52,929 nucleotides of DNA from a virus. Its lineage: Duplodnaviria; Heunggongvirae; Uroviricota; Caudoviricetes. Below, in pieces: positions 4,843 to 6,465 of this stretch (position 1 is the stretch's first letter; the number at the start of each line of letters is the position of its first letter). Both the position numbers and the translations under genes were made by a program. The stretch lies in IMG/VR virus record IMGVR_UViG_2850796239_000006; one strand, given 5' to 3'. The notes under the pieces were generated by a model. That model ran no database searches. It was given only the letters and a program-made list of their open reading frames with translations, and was not told the origin of the DNA.

Positions 4843-5034
4843 TTAAAATCCTGCCGGGATTTCGTTATTATCCTGGTGAATAACTTTATCGACCGGATAA
4901 CAGTTGCCTGGAATTTTCTGTTCGGTTGCTGCTGCCATACATTCCTGCATTGTTCTGTGAACACTGACTGCAATATCAACTGGCTCTCCGGAAACAAGAA
5001 AAACCGTCAGAATAAGTGCAAATACTGGATTCAT
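4843..5034 (-). CDS. ydfD: YdfD-like small lysis/membrane protein (Qin-like)
   Basis: 63-aa product MNPVFALILTVFLVSGEPVDIAVSV... with N-terminal hydrophobic segment; start overlaps the dicB stop (ATGA); name from memory of Qin gene order. Confidence 0.55.
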   Translation of the reverse strand: MNPVFALILTVFLVSGEPVDIAVSVHRTMQECMAAATEQKIPGNCYPVDKVIHQDNNEIPAGF

Positions 5035-5219
5035 TGTGCACATCCTTTTGGCATCAGACGTAAACGGGCCAGCATTGAAACAATGCATACTTTATTTAAT
5101 AACTCCCGTTCGTGTTTTCTTTTGTTAATGGCCTCTTCAGTAAATACAGGATTACTGATAGTGACACCAATTTCAAAACAACCTTCAGACGTATTAACGT
5201 TTGGTAATAACGTTTTCAT
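5031..5219 (-). CDS. dicB: Cell division inhibitor DicB
   Basis: 62-aa product MKTLLPNVNTSEGCFEIGVTISNPVFTEEAINKRKHERELLNKVCIVSMLARLRLMPKGCAQ, near-identical to my recollection of E. coli DicB; the ORF track's longer 97-aa ORF carries an upstream extension. Confidence 0.8.
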   Translation of the reverse strand: MKTLLPNVNTSEGCFEIGVTISNPVFTEEAINKRKHERELLNKVCIVSMLARLRLMPKGCAQ

Positions 5220-5393
5220 TATCGCGCCCTCAACAATGAGTTTTGTGATGCGGTGCCTGGTGTCTCCAGGTGACGTTAACCAGTTAACAATTAACGCCGG
5301 ATACAGAGAATCCACCCATAACACTGTTTTTGGTTTTAACTGTTCCGCGTGCGCTTAGCCGCATTCACCGCATCACAAAATTCACTTTAAAAA

Positions 5394-5446
5394 GGGCGGC
5401 AGAGCAGTCACGGAGTAAAACTGATACCGCCAAACGTCACCAGAAA
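5394..5446 (-). ncRNA. dicF: DicF small RNA (ftsZ-targeting sRNA)
   Basis: Minus-strand sequence TTTCTGGTGACGTTTGGCGGTATCAGTTTTACTCCGTGACTGCTCTGCCGCCC followed by a T-run matches the 53-nt DicF as I recall it; lies between ydfC and dicB as in Qin. Confidence 0.85.
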
Positions 5447-5787
5447 ATTGATAACAGAGGGCGTTGCAGCGGGGTTGTCACTTAAGCGTATGGTCAACCT
5501 GACAACCCGGTGTCCTCAACGGGGGAAGGAATAATCCCGCCATACTTACCGCCGCGCCATTTCGCGGATTGCCACAACCGGAAGCGCACGGTCGACGAAA
5601 ATTTAACGACAGGCTATCTATGAACCAGCTACCTCGCCGTGCGCTTTCGCGTTATGGTCTGACTTTTCAGGGAAATATCCTTTCAGTAAACTGTCAGTGC
5701 CGGATGCTCACCCGTGTCCGGCGCACGCACTCCACCTCACCCGTGGAGAACTCCTTAATTACTAACCTTAGCTTTGTTGATTAGCTA

Positions 5788-6006
5788 CTAACGCGGGTAT
5801 GTAATCATTCTGGCAATGCTTAATGCCGCTGCTTTTTCCAGATTGGTGATATCCTGCTCCAGAGCGGACAGATTTTCAGCCTGCTTAGCCCTGGCTTCAT
5901 TAGCCCATTTCAGATCCTGCGCTGCATTAATTTTCTGGCGCATCCACTCATAAAGTTCATCATCGGTATAGTCTGGCGCGATGATGACGGGTTCTCGTTT
6001 CTGCAC
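5788..6006 (-). CDS. ydfC: YdfC-like protein (dicB operon)
   Basis: 72-aa ORF MQKREPVIIAPDYTDDELYEWMRQ...; position upstream of dicF. Confidence 0.6.
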   Translation of the reverse strand: MQKREPVIIAPDYTDDELYEWMRQKINAAQDLKWANEARAKQAENLSALEQDITNLEKAAALSIARMITYPR

Positions 6007-6035
6007 GCTGATTCCTCGCGGTGCTGTTTCGCTTA

Positions 6036-6164
6036 TCAGCCGTTAGATTTTGCCGAACTGGAAAGCGCCTGTTTAAATTCGCTGAAGCTGAGAGCTTCTT
6101 CGCCTTCGGCAAGGCCTTCGAAGTATTCTTCGTAAGCCTTTTCCATGATTGTGTCGAAATCCAT
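6036..6164 (-). CDS. ydfB: YdfB-like small protein (dicB operon)
   Basis: 42-aa ORF MDFDTIMEKAYEEYFEGLAEGEEALSFSEFKQALSSSAKSNG, below the ORF-track size cut-off; start lies 1 bp past the ydfA stop. Confidence 0.55.
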   Translation of the reverse strand: MDFDTIMEKAYEEYFEGLAEGEEALSFSEFKQALSSSAKSNG

Positions 6165-6165
6165 A

Positions 6166-6321
6166 TCACCCACCTGAATTTCTTTCCAGCCAGCGACGCG
6201 CTCCAGATTCGGTTTTAAACGTTTTGCTTTTGGTATACGTCATTGCGGTGAAGGTGCCGTCCTGGTTGGGAAACACGCCGTACACCAGAGATTCGTTGTT
6301 GCCAAGATCGATAGTATCCAT
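6166..6321 (-). CDS. ydfA: YdfA-like small protein (first gene of dicB operon)
   Basis: 51-aa product MDTIDLGNNESLVYGVFPNQDGTFTAMTYTKSKTFKTESGARRWLERNSGG from the internal Met of ORF 6166..6444. Confidence 0.6.
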   Translation of the reverse strand: MDTIDLGNNESLVYGVFPNQDGTFTAMTYTKSKTFKTESGARRWLERNSGG

Positions 6322-6465
6322 GCTGACCTCATTTCCCCTTAACGCCGGGGTAGCGGAACAAAAACCTGCTGCATAGTTATTAAGTAAGCGCCCCATCAGC
6401 GACGTCTTGTGAAAATTGTCCTGTCTGGCAACAATCGCGCCCATCTATATTGATGGACACGAACG

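Follow-up and report, generated by a model that had tools for sequence, protein, structure and literature searches.

In the Qin prophage of Escherichia coli K-12, the ydfABC-dicF-dicB-ydfD operon encodes, among other products, the small RNA DicF and the cell-division inhibitor DicB, and dicBp is the sole promoter of this operon with experimental evidence, where DicA accounts for a 22-fold repression and the antirepressor Rem for a 165-fold induction (PMC10448788). Here, we analysed a copy of the operon in a lambdoid prophage on a viral DNA stretch of 52,929 nucleotides (IMG/VR record IMGVR_UViG_2850796239_000006), referred to below, at its full length, as the window. The prophage sits beside mtfA and a tRNA-Ser gene of its host, and the window matches a stretch of CP026875.1 (assembly GCA_002950355.1) at 100% identity, with window positions 19345-1 equalling positions 1-19345 of our locus L006 from that record. 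What controls a dicBF operon that has been parted from its promoter and repressor gene? We favour, with a probability of about 0.6 on the evidence of the sequence, a two-step loss of the promoter that most likely left the operon silent and uncoupled from its repressor. In a first step, an insertion sequence (IS) of the IS66 family and ISSfl3 type entered the leader between the PL promoter and ydfA, duplicating the 8-bp target TTAATAAC; in a second, going by the sequence as assembled, an inverted copy came to lie at the final holin codon (target duplication CCCCGTGC) and the intervening 13.5 kb flipped. Repressor, promoter and operator thereby ceased to face the operon, most likely leaving it unexpressed in the lysogen and unresponsive to the repressor switch.

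In all sequence features but an adjacent promoter and repressor, the module is a Qin-type dicBF operon (feature coordinates and protein identities are collected in Table 1). Its DNA is 98% identical to that of Qin over a stretch that starts ~40 nt ahead of the ydfA ATG and ends with the ydfD stop codon, the alignment with K-12 runs collinearly over 1.5 kb in the order ydfA-ydfB-ydfC-dicF-dicB-ydfD on one strand, and none of the five reading frames of the operon contains an internal stop codon. DicF, identical to its K-12 counterpart, scores 76.7 bits against the Rfam model RF00039 (gathering score 48) in a full-length match at 5394-5445. PF05358 (DicB) is recorded for the identical dicB gene in L006 and L016, and the ydfD counterparts of relatives carry the annotation DUF1482/ydfD. 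A 92-aa open frame proposed by gene callers is ydfA extended into the adjoining IS. An earlier reading made without database searches (the sequence-only reading) had described an intact minus-strand operon with an exact 53-nt DicF match and a 62-aa DicB, and all three statements are borne out. The locus is a standard Qin-type early-left operon of a lambdoid prophage. Its surroundings are unlike those of Qin: homology begins only ~40 nt upstream of ydfA, the immunity type differs (with a repressor 29% identical to DicA and another operator sequence), promoter and repressor are detached by the IS and the inversion, an exonuclease gene with a stop codon stands in place of ydfE, and no Rem homologue is found in the window, where a tblastn search with a Rem-family protein from locus L005 as the query gave no match (E > 1). 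An antirepressor from a different family, or one whose gene lies outside the window, may nevertheless serve this prophage.

As in Qin, the repressor is a short protein of the DicA type with a helix-turn-helix (HTH) domain, and the operator of the PL-like promoter recurs in the divergent cro/repressor region. The 29% identity with K-12 DicA extends over 112 aa (BLASTP, E = 5e-15), and the two proteins are equal in size. Among Pfam families, HTH_3 is the main match and Peptidase_S24 gives none; by size, HTH domain and the lack of an S24 domain, the protein falls among the short repressors of the DicA/Gifsy type (~135 aa). In strain E04 (NZ_CM143912.1) and in CP026824.1 and UYIS01000021.1 (loci L015 and L018), the repressor gene directly precedes ydfA, with both genes on one strand. 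Promoter and operator, too, are found directly upstream of ydfA in these three and not in the window, where they now lie 16 kb from the operon and on the other strand, which agrees with the distance given by the sequence-only reading. Positions 22449-22490 have the layout expected of a PL-type promoter and its operator and would represent the native promoter of the operon. The motif GWACT-N3-AGTAC has three sites in the 52.9-kb window against 0.01 expected by chance, a figure that is partly circular because the motif was derived from these same sites; the two besides the one abutting PL (21889 and 21913) both lie in the 79-nt intergenic region between cro and the repressor gene.

How much of this control region did the operon retain? 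The 62-nt stub upstream of ydfA continues, in the uninterrupted loci L001 and L003, into the sequence found in the window at 22611 and below, which places the IS inside the transcribed leader, ~115 nt after the predicted PL start site and 57 nt before the ydfA ATG. At 6376-6383, the stub includes the left-hand repeat of the target duplication, which reads TTAATAAC on the operon strand. Copy 1 of the IS had been located correctly by the sequence-only reading, save that the gap to ydfA is 62 nt (6322-6383) and not 63. What is still attached to the operon is leader only, and K-12 dicBp (TTGACC-17-TAATCT), which stands roughly 78-106 nt ahead of the ydfA start codon, would lie wholly beyond these 62 nt. 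As a separate matter, we considered whether the ~170-nt conserved leader might encode an HK022 put-like antitermination RNA and rejected this candidate: its fold is no more stable than that of shuffled sequences (z = +1.16), and Rfam returned for this leader only chance-level matches (E >= 1.2).

Both IS66 copies measure 2753 bp, differ from each other at four positions and are 99.6% identical to an element annotated by PGAP as ISSfl3 family in locus L004 (intact reference, 2754 bp). Their ends read GTAAGCGCCCC, with terminal inverted repeats starting GTAAGCG, of which the right one of copy 1 carries two substitutions (9129 and 9131). Copy 1 comprises tnpA (6466-7140), tnpB (7137-7484) and tnpC (7504-9104, frameshifted by -1 within a run of C near 7807); zf-IS66 and DDE_Tnp_IS66 are recorded for tnpC in L006. 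Compared to the reference, each copy is one C short, the losses falling in different C5 runs and resulting in two distinct tnpC shifts (positions concerned: 7807-7810, 8069-8073 and, as the copy 2 equivalent, 23675-23678).

Inversions between inverted IS copies or prophages are general in genomes of E. coli and Shigella, and the window follows this pattern: inverted IS copies flank the flipped segment and target duplications are exchanged between them. The reference is E04, whose usual lambdoid gene order runs from cro through replication genes, hok, DUF968, rusA, Q, tRNA genes, TolA-like genes, holin and DUF1327 to lysozyme on one side and, diverging from it, from the repressor gene through ydfA, ydfB, dicB, ydfD, exo and xis to int on the other; relative to this order, the window segment is inverted with respect to both of its flanks. 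It holds the holin gene, two TolA-like genes, STnc100, two tRNA genes, PR' with tR', Q, rusA, DUF968, hok/sok, two IS421-type elements, replication genes, a cro-like gene, the repressor gene and PL. The target repeats are split accordingly: CCCCGTGC to the right of copy 1 is the reverse complement of GCACGGGG to the right of copy 2, while in uninterrupted relatives the CCCCGTGC site is single and formed by the last holin codons, directly before DUF1327. The inversion deduced by the sequence-only reading is hence real in this sequence, given both the reversal of 9137-22611 against E04 and the CCCCGTGC/GCACGGGG split. Both 8-bp duplications are recognizable, that of the holin site being CCCCGTGC and that of the leader site, in relatives, TTAATAAC; a 5-bp duplication at the leader site was rejected, as relatives carry the full 8-bp TTAATAAC and the apparent 5-bp repeat arises from the loss of AAC (3 nt) beside the right end of copy 2 (22609-22612, compared with L015, L018 and CP027027.1, locus L017). 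The flip may have come about by recombination between two independently inserted copies or by the leader copy transposing intramolecularly into the holin gene in a single event, routes that are indistinguishable because their end products are identical. We found no mechanistic difference from known IS or prophage inversions; the particular point is which promoters were swapped.

Relatives allow these events to be ordered. An exact look-up of the 92-aa fusion frame recovered the ydfA/IS junction in five further assemblies, and no match was obtained in 5,426 complete E. coli genomes or in the species-representative genome set. Its lack in those E. coli genomes, together with the ISSfl3 name, would suggest a host resembling Shigella. 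Three records with the junction, CP026824.1, CP027027.1 and UYIS01000021.1, have cro, repressor gene, PL, IS66 and ydfA onward in the non-inverted arrangement, with TTAATAAC perfectly duplicated on both IS sides. They share with the window the identical IS66/ydfA junction, the operon (99.87%) and the same 139-aa repressor and PL (99.4-99.7%), and differ from it in that PL is still directed at the operon, across the IS. Since the IS-bearing, non-inverted state exists in three other assemblies, the leader insertion is older than the inversion, and since the IS already lies between PL and ydfA there, 2.75 kb of IS had parted the operon from PL before anything flipped. The sequence-only reading had ascribed the parting of operon and repressor to both IS and inversion; both are present, only the separation predates the inversion. 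This order of events is the new element here, as read from the assemblies compared. The leader insertion is recorded in the sequence, and the state it produced survives in other assemblies; the second copy and the inversion are documented for the sequence as assembled, and among the contigs examined they occur solely in the source genome CP026875.1. Uninterrupted comparators are E04, 99% identical to the inverted segment, and strain 190 (NZ_CP020520.1), 99.5% identical over the int-exo-dicB-ydfA arm and integrated at the same mtfA/tRNA-Ser site; unlike the window, both lack the leader IS66 and the inversion and have repressor gene and PL abutting ydfA, and the E04 prophage is integrated next to rspB.

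Several further observations concern these relatives. Draft contigs ending at the holin stop codon were considered as carriers of the same IS insertion and rejected, for their ends consist of the natural sequence GCACGGGGAGA. In L015, L017 and L018, the leader-site IS66 has an internal tnpC deletion in which 36 nt of the copy 1 query are missing, with an 8-9 nt overlap between the matched blocks and the short direct repeat TCTCCCGGGGA flanking it. L017 has a second ISSfl3 copy nested in the leader-site IS66. An IS630-like element adjoining mlrA takes the place of the prophage past ydaT in L015 and L018, both of which lack Q and the holin gene.

Could the inverted order be an assembly error, or one of two isomers that interconvert through the 2.75-kb repeats? 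The alternative state would keep the IS between PL and ydfA with both facing the same way, as in L015. Such a state is present in relatives, a flip between identical inverted repeats yields exactly the split target-repeat pattern observed, and the single-base losses in homopolymers of both IS66 copies and one IS421 copy suggest residual sequencing error; indeed, some of the IS66 and IS421 shifts may reflect such error rather than biology. The source, however, is a single 5.16-Mb chromosome record, for which reads are normally long enough to span 2.75 kb, and homopolymer errors also point to long-read data. Moreover, the two IS66 copies were resolved separately in the assembly, given their four differing positions. 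We consider this explanation distinctly improbable.

What transcription now faces the operon? Promoters were searched with a consensus scan (sites with at least 9/12 matches) and with a more lenient scan of our own (at least 8/12). On the minus strand of 6250-6750, which covers the 62-nt stub and the IS end, there is no sigma-70-like site of at least 8/12, compared with a window average of 5.8 such sites per kb and strand. The first minus-strand site of at least 9/12 upstream of the operon lies beyond the IS, ~3 kb away (9407-9380), and the consensus scan found none of at least 9/12 on the sense strand within the operon. A promoter between 6322 and 6383 had been named by the sequence-only reading as a finding that would speak against it; neither scan detects one. 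Within the IS, antisense RNA would contain 30-36% C versus 18-22% G at about 9036-8637 and 8436-8337, so that Rho would probably stop an ordinary polymerase in these 2.75 kb of untranslated antisense sequence. Terminator-like hairpins on the minus strand of the IS are limited to a single weak one (6562-6548). Together, the lack of a recognizable sigma-70 promoter for ~3 kb and the probable Rho stop are what suggest a silent operon.

Outward promoters are common among insertion sequences, and low constitutive expression might arise from a cryptic promoter at the left end of IS66, from a hybrid formed at the junction or from a site upstream of dicB. That the operon is intact in all IS-bearing relatives examined would fit such an arrangement. 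Against it speak the empty scans just described and a literature search that returned no report of an outward promoter for ISSfl3/IS66-type elements. Furthermore, a 2023 K-12 study saw no evidence for an internal operon promoter (PMC10448788), albeit the same paper cites Cam et al. 1988 as having proposed a second promoter upstream of dicB. On balance, we regard a cryptic promoter as a long shot.

Besides that 1988 proposal, a handful of points weigh against the silence we favour. Consensus scans overlook weak, activator-dependent and alternative-sigma promoters. The Rho stop in the IS is read from base composition only, and the orientation between the two 2.75-kb repeats depends on correct assembly. 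Lastly, the operon has not decayed, there being at most two substitutions within 1541 bp among IS-bearing relatives; this fits recent insertion and continued use alike, and so few differences are uninformative on selection in either direction.

The sole plausible expression route would be terminator-resistant transcription from the late promoter PR' via the tRNA genes, the holin gene and antisense IS66 into ydfA. The candidate PR' scores 8/12 plus an extended -10 element, below the threshold of the scan tool; with the Q gene, this promoter and a terminator-like hairpin behind it, the region has the make-up of a lambdoid Q/PR' unit at the sequence level. The minus-strand order is Q, PR', the hairpin, two tRNA genes, STnc100, two TolA-like genes, the holin gene, antisense IS66 and ydfA, with ~5.6 kb from the PR' start to the ydfA ATG, so the collinearity of late promoter and operon claimed by the sequence-only reading holds. 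In the holin gene, the last codon is replaced: both the third base of the final glycine codon and the TAA stop come from the IS end (9133-9140), and the protein now ends in KAARG (70 aa) instead of KAARGE (71 aa), as seen when the junction is compared with the uninterrupted loci L005 and L008. Other phages have the same 70-aa protein naturally, by way of another stop codon (L005). The two TolA-like genes are likely late genes given their position between PR' and the holin gene. They encode TolA C-terminal domains (9597-9992 and 10097-10570; 131 and 157 aa), the 131-aa protein with a lipoprotein-like N terminus; one of them is annotated in E04 as a truncated pseudogene and differs there by one G in a G run.

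If this unit were functional, induction could rewire the operon, with Q-modified polymerase from PR' reaching ydfABC-dicF-dicB, late production of DicF and DicB, and filamentation. Q-modified polymerase passes intrinsic as well as Rho-dependent terminators over more than 20 kb, which makes transcription into ydfA mechanistically reasonable if Q is made; the shared minus strand of PR', tR', holin gene, IS66 and ydfA, the ~5.6-kb distance and the one weak hairpin in the IS are likewise in line with it. Expression of Q from PR, however, must cross two IS421 insertions of 1.3 kb, and since Q is needed and the PR-to-Q operon is broken by them, the route becomes uncertain. The two IS421 copies flank a DUF977 gene (18257-18679), the intervening 955 bp keep their orientation, and each copy has its own target duplication of ~9-10 bp relative to E04; one copy has lost a base in a G run, its transposase being split into 198 + 207 aa compared to 407 aa in the other. 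In addition, the window encodes no Rem-like antirepressor, read-through would skip the DicF terminator that normally makes the DicF 3' end, and the repressor is of the short DicA/Gifsy type, a kind relieved through antirepressors and lacking an S24 domain cleavable after DNA damage (PMC10448788). Rewiring is thus unlikely in our estimation. The Q-dependent or IS-derived read-through that the sequence-only reading had offered as a source of DicF, DicB and filamentation finds no support, given that no outward promoter was found in the IS end or the stub, that two IS421 copies interrupt the PR-to-Q operon and that the window shows no Rem, and silence, its fallback, is more likely than read-through expression on the sequence features at hand.

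The inversion has a reciprocal effect that the sequence-only reading did not mention: PL is now aimed at DUF1327, lysozyme and the genes beyond, with IS66 copy 2 read in antisense on the way. Because PL faces the lysozyme side and the holin gene was left behind PR', the lysis cassette is split between two promoters. In principle, an exchange of promoter outputs, with PR' serving holin and DicF/DicB without endolysin and PL serving DUF1327, endolysin and morphogenesis, could, if maintained by selection or reversed repeatedly by recombination of the IS copies, give the host an invertible switch between a normal prophage and a non-lytic one whose response to induction is a division block; we deem this very remote.

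Table 1. Positions of the features discussed, in window coordinates
Feature	Position	Strand	Remarks
ydfD, 63 aa, DUF1482 lysis protein	4843-5034	-	56/63 identical to K-12 YdfD; PF07358 for the identical L006 gene
dicB, 62-aa cell-division inhibitor	5031-5219	-	59/62 identical to K-12 DicB
dicF, small RNA	5394-5446	-	53/53 with the K-12 53-nt sequence
ydfC, 72 aa, GTG start	5788-6006	-	71/72 identical to K-12 YdfC
ydfB, 42 aa	6036-6164	-	42/42 identical to K-12 YdfB
ydfA, 51 aa, DUF1391	6166-6321	-	49/51 identical to K-12 YdfA
Retained 62-nt leader stub	6322-6383	-	Identity with uninterrupted L001 stops at 6383
IS66 ISSfl3-type copy 1	6384-9136	+	Inverted repeat with copy 2; Pfam HTH_Tnp_1, TnpB_IS66
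P21-type holin S gene	9133-9345	-	PF04971, 121 bits
Inverted segment	9137-22611		99% identical to and collinear with E04, in opposite orientation to ydfA and lysozyme
Terminator-like tR' hairpin with T run	11884-11865	-	Downstream of the PR'-like site
Candidate PR', TTGATT-16-TGgTAAATT	11959-11932	-	Just past the Q stop codon; read from sequence
Q antiterminator gene, 273 aa	11965-12786	-	PF03589 Antiterm, 183 bits; antitermination protein in relatives
IS421-type elements (IS4 family), two inverted copies	16448-17769, 18725-20047		99% identical; within the early-right operon, between PR and Q
DicA-like short HTH repressor gene, 139 aa	21952-22371	+	HTH_3, 1.8e-9
Operator-like palindrome GTACTAAAAGTAC	22449-22461	+	Abuts the -35 hexamer of the PL-type promoter
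Predicted PL-type promoter, TTTACA-17-TATTAT	22462-22490	+	10/12 consensus matches
Detached 5' leader part	22491-22611	+	Ends in target-duplication remnant TTAAT; contiguous with the stub in L001 and L003
IS66 ISSfl3-type copy 2	22612-25364	-	Inverted repeat of copy 1; -1 shift in a different C run
DUF1327 gene	25384-25698		Ahead of PL after inversion
Lysozyme gene	25754-26287		Ahead of PL after inversion; then Rz, terminase and structural genes

The prophage is decaying in other places as well, with a stop codon in the exonuclease gene and with holin and endolysin genes parted from each other. Downstream of ydfD, the Exonuc_VIII gene is broken at 2655-2662 into frames of 695 and 114 aa, compared to 813 aa in strain 190; relative to that strain, the split is due to a substitution and involves no indel. 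The draft contig AERN01000058.1 (L019) has the same exonuclease split, which marks it as a close relative of the source strain. Elsewhere, the replication-region gene at 20006-21130 carries a 24-bp tandem duplication (ATCTGTATCTTT repeated) at 20636-20659 relative to E04, and Rfam matches comprise STnc100 (10681-10871, between the tRNA genes and the TolA-like genes), sok (15111-15281, adjoining the hok gene) and IS009 (50107-50305, near the tail-fibre end).

Neither the module nor the type of rearrangement is new, and what we describe is ordinary prophage decay. If late transcription does enter the operon, prophage induction would result in filamentation and holin damage in place of lysis and, if true, this would be a modest but tangible case of a toxic prophage module rewired by an IS. 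A more realistic view is that of a dated decay series, in which a leader IS common to several assemblies was followed by a later inversion in one genome. As the locus also shows, an annotated 'intact dicBF operon' need not be under DicA-type control.

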